From IMG/VR virus record IMGVR_UViG_3300002461_000190: 41,775 bases of DNA. One strand, 5' to 3'. Source of the stretch: a virus. Position numbers and translations under genes: made by a program. This document shows, piece after piece, positions 2,687 to 41,775 of this stretch; position 1 is the stretch's first letter, and each line of letters opens with the position of its first letter. The notes under the pieces are model-generated. The model was not told the origin of the DNA, ran no database searches, and saw nothing but the letters and a program-made list of their open reading frames with translations.

Positions 2687-3046
2687 GTGGCCGATCCGAA
2701 CCCGCCGCCCGATCTGGTCGGATGGCTTTTCACCCCGGAAGGCAAGGCGGCAATCGCTGGCGCGGCTGGCGGAATTGTCCGATGGGTCACGCTTCGGGAA
2801 CATTGGCGGGACGGGCTTCTTTCGCTTCTGGTCGGCGCGATTTGCGCGATCTACCTGGGACCGCTGGTCGCCCCGTTGCTGGAACCGACAATCGGGAAGA
2901 TCGCCCCGGACTCGGACGGCGCGGGCTTTTCGTCGTTCGTCGTCGGCTTGGCCGGGATCAGCCTTTCGGGCTTCCTGATCGACTTGATCCGCGCCCGTCG
3001 GGCCGGGACCAAGGGGCGCCGCAATGAACCGCGCGATCCTGAATAA
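2687..3046 (+). CDS. Holin candidate
   Basis: GTG start with SD AGAGGGGA 7 nt upstream. Hydrophobic segments LLSLLVGAICAIYLGPLVAPLL and FSSFVVGLAGISLSGFLIDLI, with a basic C-terminal tail RARRAGTKGRRNEPRDPE. It lies immediately upstream of the endolysin. Confidence 0.6.
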   Translation: MADPNPPPDLVGWLFTPEGKAAIAGAAGGIVRWVTLREHWRDGLLSLLVGAICAIYLGPLVAPLLEPTIGKIAPDSDGAGFSSFVVGLAGISLSGFLIDLIRARRAGTKGRRNEPRDPE

Positions 3047-3149: not shown

Positions 3150-3779
3150 ATGACCTACACCGTCCGCGATCAACAGGCCCGTTGCGCCGCCCTGGGCTTC
3201 TGGCCCGGCCCTATCGACGGGAAGCTGGGCAAGCGGACCAGCGCCGCGATTGAGGCGGCGACCGAGTTCCAGCGCGAACGCGGCAAGCCCCTGTTTCATC
3301 CGTCCGGCCTTCACCGCGTCCACTGGCACTGGACTGTCGGTTGGCACAAGCCGAACCCGGCGGACCGGAAGCACTATCACGCCATTTTCACGGGCGCGGG
3401 CGAAGAAGTCCTTCTTCACGATTGGGACAAGCTTCTGGCCCATACGCTGAAGGCGAATACCGGCGCGATCGGGCTTTCGCTTTGCGGCATGGTCGGGGCC
3501 AATGAACGGCCCTTCGACCATGGCCCGGAACCGATCACCGAAGCCGCGCTGGCGGCGCTGGCGGTCCGGACGGCGAAGCTTTGCGTCCAGTTCGATATCC
3601 CGGTTTCGCGCTGGTCGACCCTGAGTCATTCGGAAATTCAGCCGTCGCTTGCGATCCCGCAGCGCCAGAAGTGGGATATCAACTGGTTCCCCGGCCTGGA
3701 CAAGCCGACGGACCCGATCACCGCCGGGGACCATATCCGCGCCATGGTTCGCAAGGAACTGGTTCGGTTGGCACAATGA
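3150..3779 (+). CDS. Endolysin: peptidoglycan-binding domain plus N-acetylmuramoyl-L-alanine amidase (PGRP/Amidase_2-like)
   Basis: The N-terminal LGFWPGPIDGKLGKRTSAAIEAATEFQRERG fits the PG_binding_1 pattern. The rest (HRVHWHWTVG..HYHAIF..AHTLKANTGAIGLSLCG..LSHSEI) is amidase-like. Confidence 0.7.
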   Translation: MTYTVRDQQARCAALGFWPGPIDGKLGKRTSAAIEAATEFQRERGKPLFHPSGLHRVHWHWTVGWHKPNPADRKHYHAIFTGAGEEVLLHDWDKLLAHTLKANTGAIGLSLCGMVGANERPFDHGPEPITEAALAALAVRTAKLCVQFDIPVSRWSTLSHSEIQPSLAIPQRQKWDINWFPGLDKPTDPITAGDHIRAMVRKELVRLAQ

Positions 3780-4740: not shown

Positions 4741-4929
4741 ATGGCAAAGAAACCGAAGACGGTCTTCAAGGTCTTTGACGGCGCCGGAAACGTCGTCGGC
4801 GAGGCTGACAACGCGAACGACGCGGACGCCGTTGTCGAAGATCACCGCGCCGCCGGACGCGGGCCGTCCTACGTCCGGGAAGTCCCGGTCGAAGAACCCG
4901 AAGCGCCCGTCGAAGGCGCGGGGCAATAA
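4741..4929 (+). CDS. Hypothetical small protein
   Basis: SD GGAAGGA upstream of the ATG. The composition is protein-like. Confidence 0.5.
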   Translation: MAKKPKTVFKVFDGAGNVVGEADNANDADAVVEDHRAAGRGPSYVREVPVEEPEAPVEGAGQ

Positions 4930-4960
4930 GCCCAGAAGGGCAGGGGATGGGGGCAGGATC

Positions 4961-4999
4961 GGGGCGCGAGGGGAAACCTTCGCGCCCCGAAACTATTTT
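4961..4999 (+). terminator. Rho-independent terminator candidate
   Basis: GGGGCGCGA..TCGCGCCCC stem followed by GAAACTATTTTG. Confidence 0.5.
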
Positions 5000-5007
5000 G
5001 CGGCGAC

Positions 5008-5044
5008 CCCCTTGCAAGCAAGCATAAGCAAGCATAGGTTAGGG
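5008..5044 (+). promoter_or_regulatory. 37-bp promoter-like element, copy A (TTGCAA-N17-TAGGTT, containing a tandem AGCAAGCATA decamer)
   Basis: CCCCTTGCAAGCAAGCATAAGCAAGCATAGGTTAGGG is identical to 6036-6072. An ATG lies 6 nt after the putative -10. Confidence 0.55.
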
Positions 5045-5046
5045 AT

Positions 5047-5223
5047 ATGAAAGCCAAGATGGGAGTCGACCAGATGAAAGACCCGGACAACCTTCCAGCC
5101 GATCTGGCCCGGCGCATTCGCGAAGATCACGCCGCATATTTTGCGGCGGAACGGGCGCGCGACGCCGAACGCCTGCAAGAGTATCAGGCCGATTGCCTTG
5201 CATCATGGGAAGGCCGGAAATGA
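5047..5223 (+). CDS. Hypothetical 58-aa protein, first gene of accessory cassette A
   Basis: Hand translation gives MKAKMGVDQMKDPDNLPADLARRIREDHAAYFAAERARDAERLQEYQADCLASWEGRK. The stop overlaps the next ATG (ATGA). Confidence 0.45.
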   Translation: MKAKMGVDQMKDPDNLPADLARRIREDHAAYFAAERARDAERLQEYQADCLASWEGRK

Positions 5224-5393
5224 CCGCGTTCGATCTGTTTCAACGGGCTACCTGTCAGATCGCCGAAGGCGCCCGCGCCGCCGCGATCAAGTCGCTGGAC
5301 AAGGCGATCCAGAAGATCGACGCAAACGGGGTCGACGCGGAATTGCGCCCCGATCTGGTCGACTTGCGCGATAGCCTGAAGGTGACGGCGTGA
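5220..5393 (+). CDS. Hypothetical 57-aa protein
   Basis: The internal ATG (MTAFDLFQ..) of ORF 5193..5393 overlaps the upstream stop. Confidence 0.45.
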   Translation: MTAFDLFQRATCQIAEGARAAAIKSLDKAIQKIDANGVDAELRPDLVDLRDSLKVTA

Positions 5394-6022
5394 TCGCCGC
5401 CCTTTTCGTCGACGACGGCGGAAGCTATTTTGGACTTTCCGGCGTTGACCCGTGGCCGGAAGCCCGCGACGCCCGCCGCTACGCTGGGCCGTGGCCCGCC
5501 GTGGCGCACCCCCCTTGCCAGCGATGGGGCAAGCTTTGGGCTGGTCAGCCGCTTTACATAAAGCAGACCGGAATCCGGAAGGTGAAGGGCGACGACGACG
5601 GTTGCTTCGCCGCCGGTCATGCCGCGATCAAGAAATGGGGCGGCATTCTGGAACACCCATGGGGGAGTCACGCTTGGGCGCACTTCGGGCTGAACAAGCC
5701 GCCCCGCGCTGGCGGATGGATCAACGCCGACTTCGAAGGCGGCTGGACCTGTTGCGTCGAACAAGGCCGATATGGTCATTACGCGCGCAAACCGACGCTT
5801 CTTCTGGCGTATCATTGCGACCTTCCGGAACTGGATTGGGGGATCAGCGAGGCGCGCCTTGATCCGGCTATCGTCGAACGCTTGGGGCTGGAAAGAGCGA
5901 AGCGCCGGGGCGAGGTCGCCGCTAAGGGCGGCGGAACCGATAGCGCGCCCAGGATCGGGACGCCGGTCCCGTTTCGCGATCTTCTGATCGGGATCGCAAG
6001 GACCGCAAAGCCGCCGCGCTGA
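5390..6022 (+). CDS. Protein of unknown function with C5-cytosine-methyltransferase-like motifs
   Basis: ALFVDDGGSY (motif I-like), VAHPPCQRWG (PCQ motif IV-like) and GILEHPWGS (ENV motif VI-like position). GTGA overlap with the upstream gene. Confidence 0.45.
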   Translation: MIAALFVDDGGSYFGLSGVDPWPEARDARRYAGPWPAVAHPPCQRWGKLWAGQPLYIKQTGIRKVKGDDDGCFAAGHAAIKKWGGILEHPWGSHAWAHFGLNKPPRAGGWINADFEGGWTCCVEQGRYGHYARKPTLLLAYHCDLPELDWGISEARLDPAIVERLGLERAKRRGEVAAKGGGTDSAPRIGTPVPFRDLLIGIARTAKPPR

Positions 6023-6035
6023 TTTTCTTCGCTTG

Positions 6036-6072
6036 CCCCTTGCAAGCAAGCATAAGCAAGCATAGGTTAGGG
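6036..6072 (+). promoter_or_regulatory. 37-bp promoter-like element, copy B
   Basis: Exact copy of 5008-5044. It is followed by AGGGGAACAAGG and an ATG at 6081. Confidence 0.55.
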
Positions 6073-6080
6073 GAACAAGG

Positions 6081-6536
6081 ATGAAAGGAACCCACACCAT
6101 GAACCGCCCTTACGGATACCATGTTTTGCAGCGCCTTCAGGAAGCCCGCGACGCGATCCGGTCGCCCGCCGGTCATTCGCCAGCCCTGATCGCCGATCAC
6201 CTTCGGACTATGGACTTGCACGGGACGGACGCCGACCAGCTTCGGGCGAACGACTTCCGCCGCGATCATGGGCTTCCGGATCAGTTCAGCATGATCCCCA
6301 AGCCCGGCCCGGTCATTGCCGCCCCGAAGTGGACGTCGGAAGGCCCTTTCAGCGCGGCGGACAGGTTCCCGAAGCTTCGGCCCCCGGCAAGCCCTAAGCC
6401 GCGCGCTGGCGGCGTTCTGGCGCGCCTTCTGGCCCGCGTCGGGCTGATCCATACCGGCGGCACCAGCGCGCGTTCTGGGCTTCGCCGTGGCGAGGTCGCG
6501 GCGATCCTGAAATCCGAAACCGAAGGGAACGAATGA
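6081..6536 (+). CDS. Hypothetical protein, first gene of accessory cassette B
   Basis: ORF directly downstream of promoter copy B. An alternative ATG is at 6099. Confidence 0.5.
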   Translation: MKGTHTMNRPYGYHVLQRLQEARDAIRSPAGHSPALIADHLRTMDLHGTDADQLRANDFRRDHGLPDQFSMIPKPGPVIAAPKWTSEGPFSAADRFPKLRPPASPKPRAGGVLARLLARVGLIHTGGTSARSGLRRGEVAAILKSETEGNE

Positions 6537-6787
6537 TCATGCCCCATATCAGCAAACGCGACTTGGCCCGCCTTCGCGAAATTGCCCGAACCGCTACCAT
6601 GGAAACGGCGGGCTTTTGCTTCCCCGCTGAAAAGATCACGGCGCCGCGTGATACGTTCGGCCCCATGGAAGAAATGACCATCGACGAACTGATCAAGGTC
6701 CGGACCAAGATTTGGCGGGATACTTGGATCGTCGACCCCCTTACGTCGATCATAAACAAGATCGAAGGGTTCGGGGGTCAGGAATGA
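6533..6787 (+). CDS. Hypothetical protein
   Basis: Start overlaps the upstream stop. The composition is protein-like. Confidence 0.5.
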   Translation: MIMPHISKRDLARLREIARTATMETAGFCFPAEKITAPRDTFGPMEEMTIDELIKVRTKIWRDTWIVDPLTSIINKIEGFGGQE

Positions 6788-7173
6788 GCCGCCGAATCCG
6801 CTTTGGCGCGGTCCTGAAGCCGGTCGCCGACTTCGAAGTCGCCCCGCACCGTTACCGCTGGGACGCCGTGACGCCGGACGATCTGGCGATCACGCCGAAA
6901 GAGGTCCGGGAAGCCGCGCCCTACAAGGTCGGGGAAGTCGTGTATGAGGCGCACGGCGAAGGGTTCCGGCGGGCCTATGTCCATGCGGTTCAGATCAAGA
7001 TGGGCTTCGACGGCTTCTGGCGGGAACAATACGCCGTCTTTCCGGAAACCAAGGCCGGACGCTGGTCGAAGCTTTATCACATCACCCACCCCGGCCCTAT
7101 CCAGCGCGGATATCAGCGGGCCGGGCTGGCGCCAGAAATGCCGGTCGAAGGGGGGAAGACCAATGCGTCTTGA
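6784..7173 (+). CDS. Hypothetical protein
   Basis: The internal ATG (MSRRIRFGAV..) of ORF 6712..7173 overlaps the upstream stop (ATGA). Confidence 0.5.
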   Translation: MSRRIRFGAVLKPVADFEVAPHRYRWDAVTPDDLAITPKEVREAAPYKVGEVVYEAHGEGFRRAYVHAVQIKMGFDGFWREQYAVFPETKAGRWSKLYHITHPGPIQRGYQRAGLAPEMPVEGGKTNAS

Positions 7174-7483
7174 AGTCGAAGACCTTTCACCAGATCGCCT
7201 TCGGCGCCGGTTGTGGACCTTCAGTCTGGGAAGCGGGTTCCTGATCCTGGTCCGGTTCGCCAATGAGGATCGCCCGACGCCGCGTCACAAGTTCCGGCCC
7301 GTGGCAAAGTGGGAGTCGAGCGACGAACGGGCCTATAACTCGCAACTGAAGCGCCCGGAGTCGATCCCGGCTTGGGTCGTCGACGAAGCACTGAAGAAGC
7401 TTCCGCCGCCGGTCGTAACGGTTGGCTGGGGATTACCGCAGGCGAAGGCGACGATCACCCCGGAACCGAAGGGCTATCCGTAG
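7163..7483 (+). CDS. Hypothetical protein
   Basis: The internal ATG (MRLEVEDLSP..) of ORF 6944..7483. Its 3' end overlaps the convergent gene 7455..7757. Confidence 0.45.
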   Translation: MRLEVEDLSPDRLRRRLWTFSLGSGFLILVRFANEDRPTPRHKFRPVAKWESSDERAYNSQLKRPESIPAWVVDEALKKLPPPVVTVGWGLPQAKATITPEPKGYP

Positions 7484-7757
7484 CCGCCGCCCGCTTCGCC
7501 CGCCGCGCCGCCGCCCGCCGCTTCTTCACGGCGTCCGCCTTGAACCGCGCTTCCATCATTGGCCAATAATTCAGCCGGGCGGCTTCAGCGGCGCGCCGGA
7601 CGATTTCTTCGGGGGGGATCGGGATCAGCCCGGTTCCCTTGCATTCGTTGCACGACACCGGATCGCGGATGATCCGAGTCAAGTCCAGCCCTTCGCGCCG
7701 AAGCGCGCAAGCGGGGCAAGGTTCGCAATTTTCCTTCAGCGTATGGTCGACCATCAT
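7455..7757 (-). CDS. Small zinc-finger protein (DnaJ-type CxxCxGxG-like motif)
   Basis: MMVDHTLKENCEPCPACA..VSCNECKGTG. SD GGGGGG lies upstream, and the ATG overlaps the stop of 7754..8143 (ATGA). Confidence 0.55.
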   Translation of the reverse strand: MMVDHTLKENCEPCPACALRREGLDLTRIIRDPVSCNECKGTGLIPIPPEEIVRRAAEAARLNYWPMMEARFKADAVKKRRAAARRAKRAAATDSPSVPG

Positions 7758-14843: not shown

Positions 14844-15074
14844 CTATTCGGCGGCGGACTCAAGGTTCGTGATCGCTTCGTCGGCGGCGTCATAGGCCGA
14901 TTGAAGGGCGTCGGCGGCGGCTTCGGATGCTTGCCCCCGGTCGCTTTGCTGAAGGCTTTCCGGCATGGCGTCGAAGGCGTCGCGTTCTTCCGACTGAAGG
15001 TCTTCAATCTGACCGCGAAGGTCTTCAAGGGCTTCTTTGATCTTTTCGATCCGGGCACGGCGGTCTTTGTTCAT
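14844..15074 (-). CDS. 76-aa acidic coiled-coil-like protein, copy 1 (paralogue of 23632..23862); first gene of the long leftward operon
   Basis: MNKDRRARIEKIKEALEDLRGQIEDLQSEERDAFDAMPESLQQSDRGQ.. It differs from copy 2 at 3 residues. Confidence 0.7.
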   Translation of the reverse strand: MNKDRRARIEKIKEALEDLRGQIEDLQSEERDAFDAMPESLQQSDRGQASEAAADALQSAYDAADEAITNLESAAE

Positions 15075-15251
15075 GGTCGTTCGTCCCTTTGGTTTGGCCG
15101 CGCTGGGCGGCGGTTGGGGCGAACGTCGCGCGGGCTATGCCAAGCAAGCGTCGTCGGTCGCCTAGCAAGCAATCTAAGGACGAACGACCAATCCGTCAAC
15201 CGGGCGCAAGCGGTCCTTGACAAAAAAAGGCCATGCGTCCAATTTGCGCGA
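15075..15251. promoter_or_regulatory. Divergent early control region
   Basis: Non-coding gap between divergent operons. It contains TTGACA(15217)-N17-CAATTT(15240) with an ATG 6 nt later, AAGCAAGC at 15142 and AGCAAGCA at 15164, and a 12-bp perfect inverted repeat at 15075-15086 and 15178-15189. Confidence 0.6.
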
Positions 15252-15467
15252 ATGGACGATAAAAAGCTTCTGGACGAAATCGAAACCTATTGCGGGGCTT
15301 CAGGAATGAAGCCTTCGACCCTTGGGCTTAAATCCTTGGGGAATAGTCGTTTCGTCGACCGCCTTCGTCGGCGGATCGTGAAGTCTGAAGAAGACGCGAC
15401 CGCCGTTCGCGCGTTCATGCGGGACAATCCGCCAGCGCCCCGCCCCGCGATTCGTCGCCGGAAGTGA
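15252..15467 (+). CDS. Cro/Ner-like small DNA-binding protein candidate
   Basis: MDDKKLLDEIETYCGASGMKPSTLGLKSLGNSRFVDRLRRR.. It is the first rightward gene, has an HTH-like segment, and has leaderless geometry. Confidence 0.5.
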   Translation: MDDKKLLDEIETYCGASGMKPSTLGLKSLGNSRFVDRLRRRIVKSEEDATAVRAFMRDNPPAPRPAIRRRK

Positions 15468-15729: not shown

Positions 15730-17049
15730 ATGACCAAAGAAGCCGAAGACGACGATCTTTTCGTCGAAGCTTGCGCCATTGCCCGACGTGACGGGCGGGC
15801 GTCCAATACGTTCCTTCAATCCGCCTTGGGGATCGGGACCGGGCGCGCCCGAAAGCTTCTGGCGCGCATGGAAGCCGCCGGGGTCATATCCCCCGCCGAC
15901 GCCTTGGGCGCGCGGACGGTCTATTCGACCGCCAGCGCCCCGCCAGCGCCGACAAGCGATCCGGACGACCAAACCCCCGGCGAAGCGCCAGCGCCCGCCA
16001 GCGCCCCGCCTATCGACGCGGGCGACCAATACGCGGAAGCCGTCCGCTTGGTCCGGGCGAACCCGCATTCCTTCGGGACGTCGTTCCTTCAGCGCCGAAT
16101 GGGGATCGGATACAATGCCGCCGCCCGGCTGGTCGAACGCATGGAAGACGAAGGCGTCGTTTCACGGGCGAACGCGGTCGGGAAGCGGTCGGTTCTTCCG
16201 CTGATCGAAGCCGCATTTCGGGAAGCGGCAAAAGACCCGCGTCACGCCGAAACATTGGAAGCCGCAAGGGAATTGCGCGACCGCAATCTGAAGCAACCCA
16301 AGAAAGGGGAAATGAGAATGGACGACGTAACGGAAGACGGCGACGACGAAGATCGGTTCGGCAATGGCAAGCCGAAGAACGTCCAAGCGCCGGGAAGCAA
16401 TCTGGTTTCGGGCGAAGAACTTCGGACGATCTTCGAACGGATCGAAAAGGTCCGTCACGACAAGGCGAAGCTTGGCGACGTCGAAAAGGAAATCTTCGCG
16501 GAACTGAAGTCGCGGGGATACGACGCCGCCGTCGTTCGTCATATCCTGAAGCGTCGGACCCTGAAGCCCGATCAAGTCGCCGAATTCGAGTCGATCACCG
16601 AACTTTATATGGCGGCGGTCGGGATGCTTAACGAACCCCCGCTTTTCCGTCACTTGTCGGGCTTCGGCGTCGATCCGGCGGTCAAGGAGTCGGTTGTGGC
16701 GGCGCTGAAGATGATTGCCCCAATGGACGGCGATATCACGATCAAGGCCGGGCCGGGGCCGCGCTTGCGGATCACCCGGACGAAGGAAGGCGTTCACGTC
16801 GAAGAAGTATCGGACGCCCCTTGGGCGACCGTTCCCGGCGCTGGCGGCGACGTTCCCGGAAAGACGCCCCCGGCGGCGGTTCCCGACGTGAACGACGACG
16901 GCGCGTTCTTGCTTGGGAAGGAAGCCCGGAAGGAAGACGTCCCGGTCGTCCAGAACCCCTTCCCGTTCGGCGATCAGCGTCGCCGCCATTGGGACGAAGG
17001 TTGGCGCGAACAAGACGGCGGGGACGGGTTCGGGGGCGGCGCGTCGTGA
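15730..17049 (+). CDS. Multidomain DNA-binding fusion: 2x FtsK-gamma-like winged helix, a GapR/DUF2312-like domain, and a C-terminal Rmf-like motif
   Basis: FLQRRMGIGYNAAARLVERMEDEGVVSRANAVGKRSVL (FtsK-gamma pattern), plus a more divergent first copy. ELRTIFERIEKVRHDKAKLGDVEKEIFAELKSRGYDAAVVRHILKRRTLKPDQVAEFESITELYMAAVGM (DUF2312 pattern). NPFPFGDQRRRHWDEGWRE (Rmf-like). Confidence 0.7.
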   Translation: MTKEAEDDDLFVEACAIARRDGRASNTFLQSALGIGTGRARKLLARMEAAGVISPADALGARTVYSTASAPPAPTSDPDDQTPGEAPAPASAPPIDAGDQYAEAVRLVRANPHSFGTSFLQRRMGIGYNAAARLVERMEDEGVVSRANAVGKRSVLPLIEAAFREAAKDPRHAETLEAARELRDRNLKQPKKGEMRMDDVTEDGDDEDRFGNGKPKNVQAPGSNLVSGEELRTIFERIEKVRHDKAKLGDVEKEIFAELKSRGYDAAVVRHILKRRTLKPDQVAEFESITELYMAAVGMLNEPPLFRHLSGFGVDPAVKESVVAALKMIAPMDGDITIKAGPGPRLRITRTKEGVHVEEVSDAPWATVPGAGGDVPGKTPPAAVPDVNDDGAFLLGKEARKEDVPVVQNPFPFGDQRRRHWDEGWREQDGGDGFGGGAS

Positions 17050-22120: not shown

Positions 22121-22225
22121 AAGGGGGGGGCCACCCCATGCCCCCCCGGTCTTAGGTTCTTCCGCGCCCCCATACTATGCGGGGGGCGAAAGCGCGTTAA
22201 GTCCCTAGTGTGAAAGGATTTTATT

Positions 22226-22267
22226 GGGTTTCCAGTTGGGGTTTCCACTTTGGGTTTCCAGTTTCCA
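22226..22267. repeat. Phased array GGGTTTCCA x3 at 13-bp spacing, followed by GTTTCCA and degenerate copies
   Basis: Copies start at 22226, 22239, 22252 and 22261. Degenerate TTTCC and GTTTACA follow at 22277-22289. Confidence 0.8.
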
Positions 22268-22345
22268 GCCGGGCAATTTCCGGTTTACAGTTGCCGCAAC
22301 CGACCGGACGAAGCCTTCGATCCGGCAATCTTCAAGGGGCCAATC

Positions 22346-23631: not shown

Positions 23632-23862
23632 TCATTCGGCGGCGGATTCAAGCGAACTGATCGCTTCGTCGGCGCTGTCATAGGCGGACTGAAGGGCGTC
23701 GGCGGCGGCTTCGGACGCTTGCCCCCGGTCGCTTTGCTGAAGGCTTTCCGGCATGGCGTCGAAGGCGTCGCGTTCTTCCGACTGAAGGTCTTCGATTTGA
23801 CCGCGAAGGTCTTCAAGGGCTTCTTTGATCTTTTCGATCCGGGCGCGGCGATCTTTGTTCAT
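23632..23862 (-). CDS. 76-aa acidic protein, copy 2 (paralogue of 14844..15074); first gene of the leftward mini-operon
   Basis: About 93% nucleotide identity to copy 1 (16 mismatches in 231 nt by hand alignment). Confidence 0.7.
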   Translation of the reverse strand: MNKDRRARIEKIKEALEDLRGQIEDLQSEERDAFDAMPESLQQSDRGQASEAAADALQSAYDSADEAISSLESAAE

Positions 23863-23943
23863 GGTCGTTCCTTTCGGGGTTTGACGATTGGCCTAGATTT
23901 TACCGGGGAAGTCGCCATAATGGCCAAGCCCGCCGGGTCGTGT

Positions 23944-23978
23944 AGCAAGCATATAAGCAAGCATTGCGACCAAGCAAG
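23944..23978. promoter_or_regulatory. AGCAAGCAT motif cluster upstream of terS
   Basis: AGCAAGCATA-t-AAGCAAGCAT-tgcgacc-AAGCAAG. It is related to the 37-bp elements at 5008 and 6036. Confidence 0.45.
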
Positions 23979-24006: not shown

Positions 24007-24642
24007 TTGGCGAAGACGGGGATCGGGATTCGGGAATATGCGCGGCGGCGGGGCGTAAGCCATACCGCCGTCGGCAAGGCTATTCGGGACGGGCGGATCA
24101 CGGTCGAAGCCGACGGATCAATCGACCCGGCGAAGGCGGATAAGCAATGGGACGCCCAAACTAACCCCGCCATGCGCCGGGGCGCGGCGGCACACGCCAG
24201 CGCCGCGACCGTGGCGTCCCTGACCCGCGCCGCGACCAAGGCGGTTCCAGCGGCGGCGCTGGCGGCGGTTGACGAAGCCCTGAAGGACGTCGATCCGGTC
24301 GCCCCGCTTGCTGGCGGCGCGCCCGCGAACGGCAACCCGGCGAACCCCGAAGCCGGGACGTTCCTTCGCGCCCGGAACGCGAACGAAGTCCTTCGGGCGC
24401 AAACCGCGCAACTTCGGCTGAAGAAGCTTGCCGGGGATTTGGTCGACCGGGACAAAGCAACCGGGATGGTCTTCGAACTTGCCCGGCGCGAAAGGGACGC
24501 TTGGCAGAACTGGCCACCGCGAGTCGCCGCGAACATGGCGGCGGAACTTGGCGTCGACGCTCACAAGATGGAACTTGCCCTAGACAAATTTATCCGAATC
24601 CAACTGGCGGAACTGGCCGAAATCAAGTTGGACCTTCGATAA
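24007..24642 (+). CDS. terS: Terminase small subunit (Nu1-like, N-terminal MerR-type HTH)
   Basis: GIREYARRRGVSHTAVGKAIRDGRI. TTG start with SD AAGGTG 7 nt upstream. The upstream ATG at 23917 would make the motif cluster coding. Confidence 0.6.
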   Translation: MAKTGIGIREYARRRGVSHTAVGKAIRDGRITVEADGSIDPAKADKQWDAQTNPAMRRGAAAHASAATVASLTRAATKAVPAAALAAVDEALKDVDPVAPLAGGAPANGNPANPEAGTFLRARNANEVLRAQTAQLRLKKLAGDLVDRDKATGMVFELARRERDAWQNWPPRVAANMAAELGVDAHKMELALDKFIRIQLAELAEIKLDLR

Positions 24643-25133
24643 TGGACCTATTCACCCAATCGACCGCCGTCTTTTCAGATTGCCGCCTTTACCGCTACAC
24701 CTTGCGGCGGCGCTGGTCTTCCGGCGTCTTGGGCGGCTTCGTCATGCTGAATCCATCGACCGCCGACGAATTCAAGAACGACCCGACGATCCGGCGTTGC
24801 ATGGGATTTGCCATGCGTGAAGGCTGGGGCGGGCTTCTGATCTTGAACCTTTTCGCCTTCCGGGCGACCGACCCAAAGGATATGACGAACGCCGTCGATC
24901 CGGTCGGGATCGAAAACGACCGATTCCTGATCGAAGCGTCGAAAGAGGTCGACGGGCCGCTAGTCGCCGCATGGGGCGCGCATTGGCTGGCGGTTGAACG
25001 GTCGAAGGCGGTCGTTTCCATGCTGTCTAGGCCGCTGGTCTGTCTTGGGAAGACCGCCGCCGGAAGCCCGCGTCACCCGCTTTATATTCGGGCTGAAGCG
25101 CCCCTGATCCCCTACGCCGGGGGCGCGACATGA
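24642..25133 (+). CDS. DUF1643 family protein
   Basis: FSDCRLYRYTLRRRW..FVMLNPSTADEFKNDPTIRRCMGFA..GWGGLLILNLFAFRATDP..GSPRHPLY. TAATG overlap with terS and ATGA overlap with terL. Confidence 0.7.
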   Translation: MDLFTQSTAVFSDCRLYRYTLRRRWSSGVLGGFVMLNPSTADEFKNDPTIRRCMGFAMREGWGGLLILNLFAFRATDPKDMTNAVDPVGIENDRFLIEASKEVDGPLVAAWGAHWLAVERSKAVVSMLSRPLVCLGKTAAGSPRHPLYIRAEAPLIPYAGGAT

Positions 25134-38942: not shown

Positions 38943-41775
38943 TGGCGACGCTTGTTCTGGGCGCGGTCGGGTCTGCGGTCGGCGGCTTGTTCGGCGGAAC
39001 GATCCTGGGCCTTAGCGGCGCCGCGATTGGCGGTTTCATCGGGTCGACCATTGGTTCCGTCGTCGACCAGTGGATCGTCGGATCGTTCGCGCCAAACCAG
39101 AACATTCAAGGGGCGAGGCTGGACGCGCTTCGGGTCACGTCGTCGACTGAAGGTTCGGTCATTCCCCGGATATACGGGCGGATGCGGGTCGGCGGGAACC
39201 TGATCTGGGCGACCGACTTTCTGGAAACGGTCAAGACCGAAGAACAAGGCGGCGGCAAGGGCGGCGGCGGCAAGGTCACGACGACGACCTATCTTTATTC
39301 GGCGAACTTCGCGATTGCGCTTTGTGAGGGGCCTATAACCGGGATCGGCCGGATTTGGGCGGATGGAAAGCCCCTGGATCGAACCGGCGTGACAATGCGG
39401 GTCTATCTGGGCGGCGAAGACCAGTTCCCCGATCCGCTGATCGTCGCCAAGGTCGGCGCGAACCGTGCCCCCGCCTATCGCGGGACGGCTTACGTCGTCT
39501 TTGACAACATGCCGCTTGAAGCGTTCGGGAACCGGATTCCGCAACTGACCTTCGAAGTCTTCAGCCCGCTTGCGGACGAAGACACGGCGGAAGGAAAGGT
39601 CAAGGCCGTTACCATGATCCCGGCGTCGGGCGAGTTCGCCTATTCTACGTCGGTCATAAAGAAGACCGGCGCCAGCACCGGATTCGCGGGCGCGTCGGCG
39701 GGGTCGACCGTGGCGATCAACGCAAACGCACAAGCGGACGTCGCGGACTTTGTGGAATCGCTGGATCGGATGGAAAGCCTAGCCCCGGCGGTCGATAGCG
39801 TTTCGCTGGTCGTGTCTTGGTTCGGGACCGATCTTCGGGCCGGGGATTGCGAATTCAAGCCAAAGGTCGACCGTAGGTTTGCCAATGACGGCGGCTTCTA
39901 TAATTACGACGCCATTGCAAACCTGCATTATATTTCCTACGTCGACGGGCTATTTCCGCCGCCCGTCGGTCTTCTTCCCCAAAAGTCAAAACAGCCCTTC
40001 CGCGTCCAGAATACAAGCGGCGGTCCAATTACCGTCGGCGTCTATTATGATGATGAATATTGGTATTCGATAAACCTTGCCGCTGGCGCGACGGCGACGG
40101 TAAACGCCCCGCCCCCGTCTTTTAACCAATGGGTCAAACTTGAGTCCGTCGGCGGTCAGGACTTCAGGGCTTACAGCGACACCGCCGGGCAAGTCGTCGT
40201 TTCAACGTCGCCCTATAGCTGGCAAGTCGGACCGACCGTCCGGGCGACGGCGGACGTCGTTTCATATAGGGAAGGCAAGCCCGCCTTTGGCGGAACGCCA
40301 GCCGACCGAAGCGTCGTCGAAGCGATCACCGAACTTCAGGCGAGGGGAAAGCGGGTCACGTTTTATCCATTCGTCATGATGGATATTCCGGAAACCAACA
40401 CGCTTCCCGATCCCTATTCCGACGAAGCACTGACAGAGGGCCAGCCCCGCTATCCATGGCGGGGCCGGATCACTTGTTCCCCGGCAGCGGGCTTTGTCGG
40501 ATCGGTCGATCAGACCGCGACCGCCGCCGCCCAGGTCGCCGCCTTGTTCGGCAGCGTGACGCCAGCTGACTTCGGGATCACGGGGACGACTGTCAACTAT
40601 TCGGGACCGGCGGGCGATTGGGGATATCGCCGGATGATCCTTCACTATGCTTATCTTTGCGCCGCCGTCGGGGGCGTCAACGCCTTCCTGATCGGAAGCG
40701 AATTGCGGGGGATTACCACGATCCGCGACGCCGCCGGGAACTATCCCGGAGTCGCGGCGCTGATCACGCTGGCGGGCGAGGTCAAGACGATCCTGGGGCC
40801 GGAAGTGAAGGTCAGCTATGCGGCGGACTGGTCGGAATACTTCGGACACCACCCGCAAGACGGGACCGGCGACGTCTTTTTCCACCTGGACCCGCTTTGG
40901 TCGAACGCCAATATCGACTTTATCGGAATCGACAATTACATGCCGGTTTCCGACTGGCGCGACGGCTTCGATCACCTGGACGCCACGGCTTGGCCGTCGA
41001 TCTATGACCGCGACTATCTGCGGTCGAACGTCGAAGGGGGCGAGGGCTTCGACTGGTTCTATGCGACCCTTGCGGATCGCGTCGACCAGATCAGGACGCC
41101 GATCACCGATGGGGCCGGGAAGCCATGGGTCTTCCGCTACAAGGACTTGCGCGCATGGTGGCAGAACCAGCATTTCAACCGGCCCGGCGGCGTCGAAGCA
41201 CTGACCCCGACCGCTTGGGTTCCGGAGTCGAAGCCGTTCTGGTTTACTGAAATCGGTTGCCCGGCGGTCGACCGGGGGACGAACCAGCCGAACGTCTTCA
41301 GCGATCCGAAATCGTCCGAAAGCTTGGTCCCCTACTTTTCGCGGGGATACCGGGACGACGCGATCCAGCGGGCCTATCTGGAATCCGTTCTGGGCTACTG
41401 GTCCGAAGCCGCGAACAACCCGACGTCCGCCGTCTATGGCGAACCGATGATCACGACCGACGAGTCGGCGGTCTGGACCTGGGACGCCCGGCCCTATCCG
41501 TTCTATCCCGAACGGACCGACGTTTGGTCGGACGGGCCGAATTGGGCGCTGGGCCATTGGCTGACCGGGCGCCTGGGCGCGGTTTCCTTGGCGGCGCTGG
41601 TCAGGAACCTTTGCGTCCGCGCCGGAATGCCTGAAGCCCAGATCGACGTTACCGACCTTTACGGGTCAATCGAAGGCTACGCGATAGCCGCCCTGGAAAG
41701 CCCCCGGACGTCCGCCGCGACGCTGGCGCGCCACTTCGGATTCGATGGGCTGGAAAGCGACGGGAAGGTCCGCTT
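38942..41775 (+). CDS. Host-specificity / tail-tip protein (RcGTA g15-like), N-terminal part; the gene continues across the junction to 1562 (about 1433 codons in total)
   Basis: Hand translation gives MATLVLGAVGSAVGGLFGGTILGLSGAAIGGFIGSTIGSVVDQWIV..RIYGRMRVGGNLIWATDF..YLYSANFAIALCEGPI.. followed by a GTA TIM-barrel-like region. There is no stop before the window end, so the ORF track omits it. Confidence 0.85.
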   Translation, partial: MATLVLGAVGSAVGGLFGGTILGLSGAAIGGFIGSTIGSVVDQWIVGSFAPNQNIQGARLDALRVTSSTEGSVIPRIYGRMRVGGNLIWATDFLETVKTEEQGGGKGGGGKVTTTTYLYSANFAIALCEGPITGIGRIWADGKPLDRTGVTMRVYLGGEDQFPDPLIVAKVGANRAPAYRGTAYVVFDNMPLEAFGNRIPQLTFEVFSPLADEDTAEGKVKAVTMIPASGEFAYSTSVIKKTGASTGFAGASAGSTVAINANAQADVADFVESLDRMESLAPAVDSVSLVVSWFGTDLRAGDCEFKPKVDRRFANDGGFYNYDAIANLHYISYVDGLFPPPVGLLPQKSKQPFRVQNTSGGPITVGVYYDDEYWYSINLAAGATATVNAPPPSFNQWVKLESVGGQDFRAYSDTAGQVVVSTSPYSWQVGPTVRATADVVSYREGKPAFGGTPADRSVVEAITELQARGKRVTFYPFVMMDIPETNTLPDPYSDEALTEGQPRYPWRGRITCSPAAGFVGSVDQTATAAAQVAALFGSVTPADFGITGTTVNYSGPAGDWGYRRMILHYAYLCAAVGGVNAFLIGSELRGITTIRDAAGNYPGVAALITLAGEVKTILGPEVKVSYAADWSEYFGHHPQDGTGDVFFHLDPLWSNANIDFIGIDNYMPVSDWRDGFDHLDATAWPSIYDRDYLRSNVEGGEGFDWFYATLADRVDQIRTPITDGAGKPWVFRYKDLRAWWQNQHFNRPGGVEALTPTAWVPESKPFWFTEIGCPAVDRGTNQPNVFSDPKSSESLVPYFSRGYRDDAIQRAYLESVLGYWSEAANNPTSAVYGEPMITTDESAVWTWDARPYPFYPERTDVWSDGPNWALGHWLTGRLGAVSLAALVRNLCVRAGMPEAQIDVTDLYGSIEGYAIAALESPRTSAATLARHFGFDGLESDGKVR
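41682..41775. repeat. Terminal overlap, identical to 1-94
   Basis: Direct comparison. Confidence 0.95.

Follow-up and report, generated by a model that had tools for sequence, protein, structure and literature searches.

A repeated 37-bp promoter-like element in front of two accessory gene cassettes of a Rhodobacter phage shares its core with the late-operon control region

Why would a phage genome carry the same short intergenic sequence twice, each time directly in front of a run of small genes? The question is raised by the IMG/VR virus record IMGVR_UViG_3300002461_000190, a stretch of 41,775 nucleotides that we call the window. The 37-mer CCCCTTGCAAGCAAGCATAAGCAAGCATAGGTTAGGG occurs exactly at 5008-5044 (element A) and at 6036-6072 (element B), both on the plus strand. 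Three open reading frames (ORFs) stand behind A and four behind B, with overlapping start and stop codons in both runs; this 3 + 4 arrangement, described in an earlier sequence-only reading of the window, was confirmed from the ORF list. That reading took the elements for promoters of two accessory cassettes that are regulated together, independently of late transcription, and saw in the region a candidate for an undescribed system, organised as superinfection-exclusion, defence or anti-defence genes usually are. Our best explanation is a joint one, to which we give about an even chance: the element would act as a promoter/operator module from which transcription starts again beyond the late terminator, its AAGCAAGCAT subsites would tie it to the regulator of the late operon, and it would serve as a socket for the exchange of cargo genes.

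The element itself is real and non-random. The identity of the two copies held up, with 0.00 repeats of a 37-mer expected from shuffles, and the window has no further copy within 3 mismatches. In element A, a -35-like TTGCAA (5012-5017) runs into two tandem copies of AAGCAAGCAT (5016-5025 and 5026-5035), which run into a -10-like TAGGTT (5035-5040). Element B has the same sequence, with the -35-like hexamer at 6040-6045, the repeats at 6044-6053 and 6054-6063, and the -10-like hexamer at 6063-6068. Among the 10-mers of the genome, AGCAAGCATA shows the strongest over-representation, with 5 copies for an expectation of 0.007, all of them on the plus strand in three intergenic places. For GCAAGCAT, we counted 7 occurrences in the window where 0.67 are expected.

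Copy A had been described as sitting just behind a terminator-like hairpin, and this was borne out. An intrinsic-terminator-like hairpin with a T-rich tail closes the late operon at 4959-5000 (plus strand). Its G+C-rich stem of 14 pairs (4959-4990) is followed by AACTATTTTG, and the RNA fold has an energy of -36.1 kcal/mol (z = -5.7). The hairpin is kept in relatives of this phage, and copy A starts 10-17 nt 3' of it in every phage. Relatives also have a hairpin before copy B, likewise 10-17 nt away (-21.9 kcal/mol, z = -3.5), while the window has none there (z = +1.3). On the other side, an ATG, or a Shine-Dalgarno sequence and an ATG, follows the elements within 6-35 nt. The window's element agrees with the sigma-70 consensus at 7 of 12 positions (TTGCAA 4/6, a 17-nt spacer, TAGGTT 3/6), and the copies in relatives have TTGCAA and then, after 16-17 nt, TATATA or TAGATA, which is again a weak match overall (7-8 of 12). 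Judged on these letters, the element is a plausible promoter.

Comparison with relatives shows which part of the element is held constant. On sequence evidence the window phage is a siphovirus of Rhodobacter capsulatus cluster RcC, a cluster described previously (PMC8601537). Its closest relative, RcKemmy, is about 90% identical to it across 61% of the first 24 kb. Each cassette-bearing relative that we examined has two syntenic copies of the element: RcKemmy, RcHotPocket, RcKvothe, RcKai, RcBaka, RcDormio, the metagenome contig L067 and the SRA-derived contig L071. The core consists of two or three direct copies of AAGCAAGCAT. Copies of the A type read CCCCTTGC-AAGCAAGCAT-AAGCAAGCAT-AGATAGGG, with a variant CCCCTTGCAAGCAT-GGC-AAGCAAGCAT-ATATAGGG in RcKemmy and L071, and copies of the B type have a third unit (...AAGCAAGCAT-ATAT-AAGCAAGCAT...). 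The frame around the core is CTTGCAA followed after 16-17 nt by TAGGTT (in the window), TAGATA or TATATA. Across all 13 aligned sites the invariant part is AGCAA(G)CAT in at least two direct copies; the hexamers are not invariant. The window and RcHotPocket agree over an unbroken run of 30 bases of the element, inside a segment with 77% overall identity, and against that local background we regard the identity as a clear footprint of selection.

A 28-nt degenerate pattern was absent from IMG/VR and from 185,579 bacterial genomes and was present in one 1.1-kb metagenome contig; on the absences, we rejected the idea that the element comes from a prophage or host. We also dropped pairs of the motif in unrelated viral contigs (L009, L010 and L012) and tandem repeats in giant viruses, as they have no proteins in common with the window. 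The motif is not mentioned in the literature that we found, and the papers on cluster RcC do not discuss promoters.

The window contains one other tandem pair besides the two elements, and its position is what changes the picture. This third direct-repeat site, TAGCAAGCAT-AT-AAGCAAGCAT, lies at 23943-23964 on the plus strand, 42 nt upstream of the start of the small terminase gene, the first gene of the late operon (24007-24642, plus strand; tblastn to RcKemmy gene 5, 81% identity). At that place, each of the six genomes and contigs that we compared (the window, RcKemmy, RcHotPocket, RcOceanus and two IMG/VR contigs) has the AAGCAAGCAT pair as an invariant block. We therefore do not accept the earlier claim that the cassettes are regulated independently of late transcription, because the core of their element is common to the late-operon control region. 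Co-regulation of the two cassettes with each other, also proposed earlier, is likely given the shared element.

We found no other plus-strand promoter-like site when we scanned the intergenic region upstream of the terminase gene. The only hit there was a minus-strand promoter for a leftward gene, at the other conserved block. The conserved blocks also suggested a possible plus-strand late promoter (TAGATT, 16 nt, CATAAT); the scan assigns that block to the minus-strand promoter instead. There is no hairpin with a T-run between the late site and the small terminase gene.

A weaker fourth site, with two AGCAAGC cores 21 nt apart, lies at 15143-15170 (plus strand) in the early divergent control region and is kept in RcKemmy, RcHotPocket and RcOceanus. 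On the 3' side of these cores there is a perfect TTGACA (15219-15224), then 17 nt, CAATTT, 6 nt and an ATG (15254). This suggests that the early regulator gene may be leaderless and start from the ATG at 15254, which would make it shorter than in the RcKemmy annotation.

Put together, each 37-bp element would be a transcription-control module that restarts rightward transcription just past the terminator of the late operon and drives one exchangeable accessory cassette. The module would be a sigma-70-type promoter frame whose spacer consists of two, in some phages three, head-to-tail AAGCAAGCAT subsites. One phage-encoded DNA-binding regulator may recognise all three repeat places, because the same subsite pair heads the late operon upstream of the small terminase. 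With a common regulator, both cassettes would be switched together with the late genes, and not independently of them.

Late regulons with several promoters under one activator are well known: C of phage Mu acts at Plys, PI, PP and Pmom, and Ogr of P2 or Delta of P4 acts at four late promoters. As in those regulons, several transcription units here have one conserved short element at or near -35, and the main late promoter is without good sigma-70 hexamers. The Mu and P2 elements differ in being dyad-symmetric and fixed in position, whereas the element here is a direct repeat with variable spacing. In further contrast to Mu and P2, two of the three sites here have hexamers of their own, and we found no homolog of an activator.

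A sister phage group, with small terminases 57-60% identical, has a different late-promoter module of about 110 bp in which direct repeats TGCGTCGC are followed by CTTGTA, 17 nt and CAATAT, overlapped by the palindrome AGCAATATCATTGCT. In several contigs of that group (L164, at 6872 and 7232; L156; L166; L123/L167) the module occurs twice per genome, once before the terminase gene and once before other genes. Copying a late control module to a place before extra genes thus appears to be recurrent in this lineage.

The element would also be the point where related phages swap cargo. Nucleotide homology with every relative extends up to 5045, returns only for 6036-6077 and is found again from 6531. 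Because homology stops at 5045 and at 6077, the novel stretches start right at the 3' edge of each element. Four of the cassette genes (A1, A2, A3 and B1, numbered in order behind each element) have no counterpart in RcKemmy or RcHotPocket, which have other small genes in those slots, and protein mapping showed that B2-B4 are shared. The window's copy B matches the A-type copy of the relatives and not their three-repeat B-type copy. An exact A-type sequence at this place suggests that the element has recently undergone recombination or gene conversion. In the relatives, cassette A has terminators on both sides; the window lacks a hairpin both between A3 and element B and after B4. B4 and the gene at 7455-7754 overlap by 29 bp (7455-7483) with no terminator between them, so that transcription of the cassette would run antisense into the early operon.

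Both cassettes are dispensable. RcOceanus (L005, 24190-24330) has a deletion that begins just after the late terminator and ends in the middle of its B3 homolog; both elements are gone, as is all the cargo in front of the end point, and the 3' half of B3 is left. RcOceanus is viable and forms plaques on its isolation host (PMC8601537). It plaques on fewer host strains than its relatives, and it also differs from them in other genes (PMC8601537). Mosaic cargo, junctions at the 3' edges of the elements and this deletion all support the earlier description of accessory, moron-like cassettes, and in our view the cassettes look like moron-type accessory cargo behind a conserved promoter-like module.

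Phage morons are autonomous units of promoter, gene and terminator, found in or after the late operons of lambdoid and other temperate phages. The classical ones often differ in base composition from the rest of the genome and are expressed from the prophage. Like morons, the cassettes lie at the end of the late/lysis region with a terminator upstream and, in relatives, downstream; they have their own promoter-like element, vary between close relatives and can be lost. Unlike classical morons, they have the composition of their genome (GC content 0.61-0.65 over 5000-7500, with a genome value of 0.639). As a further difference, their promoter-like element shares a core with the late-operon control region.

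Several observations weigh against the joint explanation of promoter, shared subsites and socket, and we set them out here. The promoter-like character stands as far as it means correctly spaced hexamers and a place between terminator and gene, but our sigma-70 consensus scan calls neither the window's element, at 7/12, nor the copies in relatives. Hexamers are not strictly conserved: copy A of L071 has ATGCAA instead of TTGCAA, and its copy B, in which two repeats are kept, is without the TATATA unit and without any -10-like hexamer. The late site is without TTGCAA and -10-like hexamers in the same register, and its geometry differs. Subsite spacing takes the values 10, 11, 12, 13 and 14 bp, which would be awkward for a rigid cooperative dimer. 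In the IMG/VR relative L076 (1075-1195), the AAGCAAGCA pair is upstream and not downstream of the other conserved block. Finally, neither of the two proteins that we considered as binders of the repeats is convincing: one resembles no Q protein and nothing that has been solved, and the other is missing from most of the phages that bear the motif. As a separate observation on L076, its AAGCAAGCA pair appears to be inserted into a GCCATAATGGC palindrome.

The first of these proteins is encoded by the last gene of the convergent early-left operon (7455-7754, minus strand). It combines a zinc ribbon with a long helix and is called an "antitermination protein" in relatives. We found no similarity to it in Pfam, PHROGs or PDB sequences, including any Q protein. 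Its AlphaFold2 model (predicted local distance difference test, pLDDT, of 74) gave 0 Foldseek hits in the PDB, and only eleven homologs are detectable. One of these, in a Cypionkella prophage (L070, 10001-10282), adjoins a MerR-like gene and an integrase gene. The annotation as an antitermination protein is unsupported. A terminator shortly 3' of the cassette elements is also lacking: the genes begin 6-35 nt on, with no hairpin and T-run between. We rejected a Q-type antitermination unit on these two grounds, that the annotated antiterminator resembles nothing in sequence or fold and that there are no downstream terminators.

Short repeats within late promoters are known as regulator-binding sites from other systems. 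Two 8-bp subsites in direct orientation make up the Q21 binding element, which is embedded in a late promoter region (10.1101/651190), and the GafZ element of a related alphaproteobacterial system lies between the -35 and -10 of a gene-transfer-agent promoter (PMC11150451). As with the GafZ element, the cassette repeats here fill the spacer between -35 and -10. We treat both systems as analogies and not as tests, and the differences are clear. No Q-, AlpA- or GafZ-like protein is detectable here, and no promoter-proximal terminator follows the elements. The annotated antiterminator gene runs towards the cassettes and, instead of adjoining the late promoter, lies about 16 kb away from it.

The second protein has 321 amino acids and two tandem OmpR/PhoB-type winged-helix domains (Pfam Trans_reg_C, E = 4.6e-5; internal repeat, E = 2e-4). 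It is encoded at 1562-2527 on the plus strand by the last gene in front of the holin, in a position that DUF2793/glycine-rich tail-fibre genes occupy in relatives. With two domains for two repeats, it would suit a tandem direct repeat. However, we found it only in the window phage and L071, and we rejected it as a general binder of the repeats since it is absent from RcKemmy, RcHotPocket and RcOceanus, which bear the motif.

A more specific version of our explanation can be imagined, in which the repeat arrays are the DNA sites where a new late-gene regulator unlike Q, for example the zinc-ribbon protein, loads or binds in RcC-type alphaproteobacterial phages. This would make a regulon of three promoters with two sockets for host-range or anti-defence cargo, including compact C5-methyltransferase-like enzymes of a very large family that has no name. 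We regard that fuller version as speculative and rather unlikely.

Among the alternatives, the one that survives best is that the elements are plain constitutive promoters of morons, read by the host RNA polymerase with a housekeeping or heat-shock-type sigma factor (CCCTTG...CAT-like). The AAGCAAGCAT repeats would then have no regulator and would have come from slippage or duplication, and the resemblance to the terminase block would reflect nothing but common descent of promoter DNA. Most copies do have a -35-like CTTGCA with a -10-like hexamer at 16-17 nt, repeat number and spacing vary as slippage products would, and each unit stands between a terminator and genes. On the other hand, what is invariant across the 13 aligned sites is the repeat core and not the hexamers. 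The late site has the repeats without hexamers, copy B of L071 has two repeats without a -10, and a weaker pair of the same core is found in the early control region as well. We think it possible, if improbable, that the elements are plain promoters.

It is somewhat harder to see the repeats as operators of a repressor, of an immunity type or like stoperators, that occludes the cassette promoters and the head of the late operon and keeps them switched off early in infection, or during a carrier or lysogenic state. This differs from our best explanation in sign only. Sites that fill the spacer between -35 and -10 have the classical geometry of repression, all copies are oriented with downstream transcription, and the weaker pair is placed in the early divergent control region, where autoregulation of a regulator gene would be expected. 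Plaques of RcC phages are turbid (PMC8601537). Yet we saw no integrase or recognisable repressor in the window or in the annotations of RcKemmy, RcHotPocket and RcOceanus, and as none of the 185,579 bacterial genomes was found to contain the element, nothing points to prophages that carry it.

The comparison with stoperators is instructive here. Those of cluster A mycobacteriophages are single sites of 13-14 bp bound by the immunity repressor; they number 20-30 per genome and lie mostly in short intergenic regions, with some inside genes. The repeats in the window are likewise asymmetric, short, oriented with transcription and present at several places in the genome. Unlike stoperators, they form only 3-4 clusters, these are clusters of tandem sites, and there is no known repressor. 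We consider repression an unlikely role for them.

We are very doubtful that the element is mainly a recombination linker, with cassettes exchanged by homologous recombination and any transcriptional role secondary. Both mosaic junctions do fall at the 3' edge of the element, the exact A-type copy at position B implies recent recombination or gene conversion, and cargo differs between phages. But a linker would need neither internal direct repeats nor hexamers nor a fixed place behind terminators, and a copy at the head of the late operon would be needless where no cargo varies. Promoters are known to serve as junctions, and we see the exchange better as a consequence of the module than as a rival to it.

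Least probable of all is an action of the repeats at the RNA level, in which an antiterminator or an RNA-binding protein would recognise them, in the manner of nut or put sites, on transcripts that read through from the late operon. In its favour, single-stranded RNA would tolerate a variable distance between short repeats more easily, relatives annotate a nearby gene as an antitermination protein, and the late-site repeats may be transcribed if the start is upstream, but the cassette repeats come after and not before the terminators to be overcome, the antiterminator annotation is without support, and the element has no stable structure (z = 0.17) or Rfam match. We rejected a structured RNA, as the element does not fold and neither Rfam families nor tRNAs were found anywhere in the window.

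We next consider what the cassettes encode. All seven ORFs have G+C at third codon positions (GC3) well above that at second positions (GC2), as real genes of this genome do. In cassette A, A1 (5047-5223, plus strand) has the weakest coding signal (GC3 0.57-0.61) and the least certain coding status, with an alternative start at 5077 behind GGGAG; it has no family match and no homolog in RcKemmy or RcHotPocket. A2 (5220-5393, plus strand) is a small helical ORF with only sub-threshold family matches, and it is likewise not present in RcKemmy or RcHotPocket. A3 (5390-6022, plus strand; phrog_12600, 1e-67) has 210 amino acids and is discussed below.

In cassette B, B1 (6081-6536, plus strand) more likely starts at 6099 behind AAAGGAA. 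It is unique to the window phage among those compared and has no family match in Pfam, PHROGs, PADLOC or NCBIfam. B2 (6539-6787, plus strand; phrog_29142, 5e-11) is conserved in cluster RcC, with homologs in RcKemmy gene 35 and RcHotPocket gene 37. B3 (6784-7173, plus strand) is also conserved in the cluster and belongs to a family of 57 hypothetical proteins. B4 (7163-7483, plus strand; phrog_33971, 2e-12) has a homolog in RcHotPocket gene 39.

The suggestion of an undescribed defence system found no support in these searches. Pfam and NCBIfam gave no informative match for any of the seven proteins. PADLOC gave no credible match; there was only BrxB for B3, which was marginal (E = 0.017, 13 bits). 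In PHROGs, A3, B2 and B4 fall in families of unknown function, and searches of PDB sequences with B1, B3 and B4 returned nothing. We rejected a defence system for lack of support from PADLOC, NCBIfam, Pfam and PDB sequences. Searching the proteins one by one, as the sequence-only reading had suggested, thus gave nothing informative for six of the seven, and for A3 Foldseek gave a weak but consistent fold like that of C5 methyltransferases.

The A3 family is large, with more than 7600 homologs of about 210 amino acids, many of them 75-80% identical across metagenomes. It has no Pfam family, and A3 has no Pfam hit at E <= 0.1, including PF00145 (DNA_methylase). Pro42, Cys43, Glu88 and Arg133 are invariant in 35 homologs and Gln44 is nearly so; Pro42-Cys43 and Glu88 correspond to catalytic motif IV and the motif VI Glu of C5 methyltransferases. 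The AlphaFold2 model has a pLDDT of 75 and a predicted template-modelling (pTM) score of 0.78. With this model, the top 50 Foldseek matches in the PDB were all C5 DNA methyltransferases, but at E = 0.014-0.46 and template-modelling (TM) scores <= 0.37. In BFVD, a library of viral structures, the top match was an S-adenosylmethionine-dependent methyltransferase, followed mostly by cytosine methyltransferases (best E = 3.6e-3, probability 0.97). The structural matches are weak overall (TM 0.26-0.46), and a profile search of PDB sequences found no methyltransferase.

A gene for a C5-cytosine-methyltransferase-like protein is a familiar phage type, linked to anti-restriction or DNA modification. 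A3 resembles the orphan C5-cytosine DNA methyltransferases of phages in its catalytic Pro-Cys(-Gln) motif, in its conserved Glu and Arg, and in its fold, for which nearly all structural matches are C5 methyltransferases. Unlike them, it lacks the canonical S-adenosylmethionine motif I (FxGxG) and PF00145, its structural matches are weak, and 210 amino acids leave no room for a target-recognition domain. We call it C5-methyltransferase-like and not a member of the family because the matches are weak and there is no space for the recognition domain. The Rhodobacter microvirus Ebor has a distant homolog that carries the annotation "putative DNA methylase". In other phages the gene adjoins Dam, GapR-like and GcrA-like genes, and the family is represented in phages of Caulobacter, Pseudomonas, Ralstonia and Xanthomonas and in microviruses. 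A3 probably has a DNA-modification or anti-restriction function.

The rest of the genome gives the setting. The first 94 bases of the window equal the last 94 (1-94 and 41682-41775), and because of this terminal overlap we take the window to be a complete, circularly assembled genome. We derived the layout by mapping the proteins of RcKemmy and RcHotPocket onto the window with tblastn. The cos site maps near 22183 by comparison with the ends of RcKemmy, and three GGGTTTCCA repeats after it (22170-22270 region) are likely terminase-binding sites. Between cos and the late operon there are a ParB-like gene and a few leftward genes. The late operon then runs from the small terminase (24007) through head, tail, holin and endolysin genes and ends with a 62-codon gene (4741-4929) followed by the terminator. 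Upstream of the cassettes are the genes for holin (2687-3046) and endolysin (3150-3779), together with small ORFs of the lysis region, and on the 3' side lies the long leftward early operon on the minus strand, convergent to the cassettes, whose last gene is at 7455-7754. Protein mapping thus confirmed that the cassettes are located between the lysis genes and the 3' end of the convergent early operon, as had been stated.

A few other features of the genome are worth recording. A DUF1643 gene (E = 2e-37) at 24645-25133 (plus strand) is inserted between the small and large terminase genes, where RcKemmy has no gene. A direct duplication of 237 nt with 94% identity (14846-15082 and 23634-23870) gives two copies of an acidic coiled-coil protein of 76 amino acids (phrog_4068), one at the early divergent region and the other beside the late control region, where RcKemmy has an unrelated gene. 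An early gene at 15730-17049 (plus strand) encodes two FtsK-gamma winged-helix domains and a GapR-like DNA-binding domain (Pfam, E = 1.7e-31 and 2.6e-19).

Nothing here overturns current ideas. The motif is undescribed in the literature that we searched, and the organisation is a fresh and tidy example of morons that have their own control element and of a late control module present in several copies. For the Rhodobacter phages of cluster RcC it offers a first candidate regulatory code, in which a 10-bp subsite is common to the late operon and to two cargo slots, and the element marks the site where accessory genes get plugged in and swapped. The natural deletion in RcOceanus bears on whether the cassettes affect host range. 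Beyond this cluster, the more than 7,600 highly conserved and unannotated phage proteins of the A3 family may be minimal cytosine-modifying enzymes.

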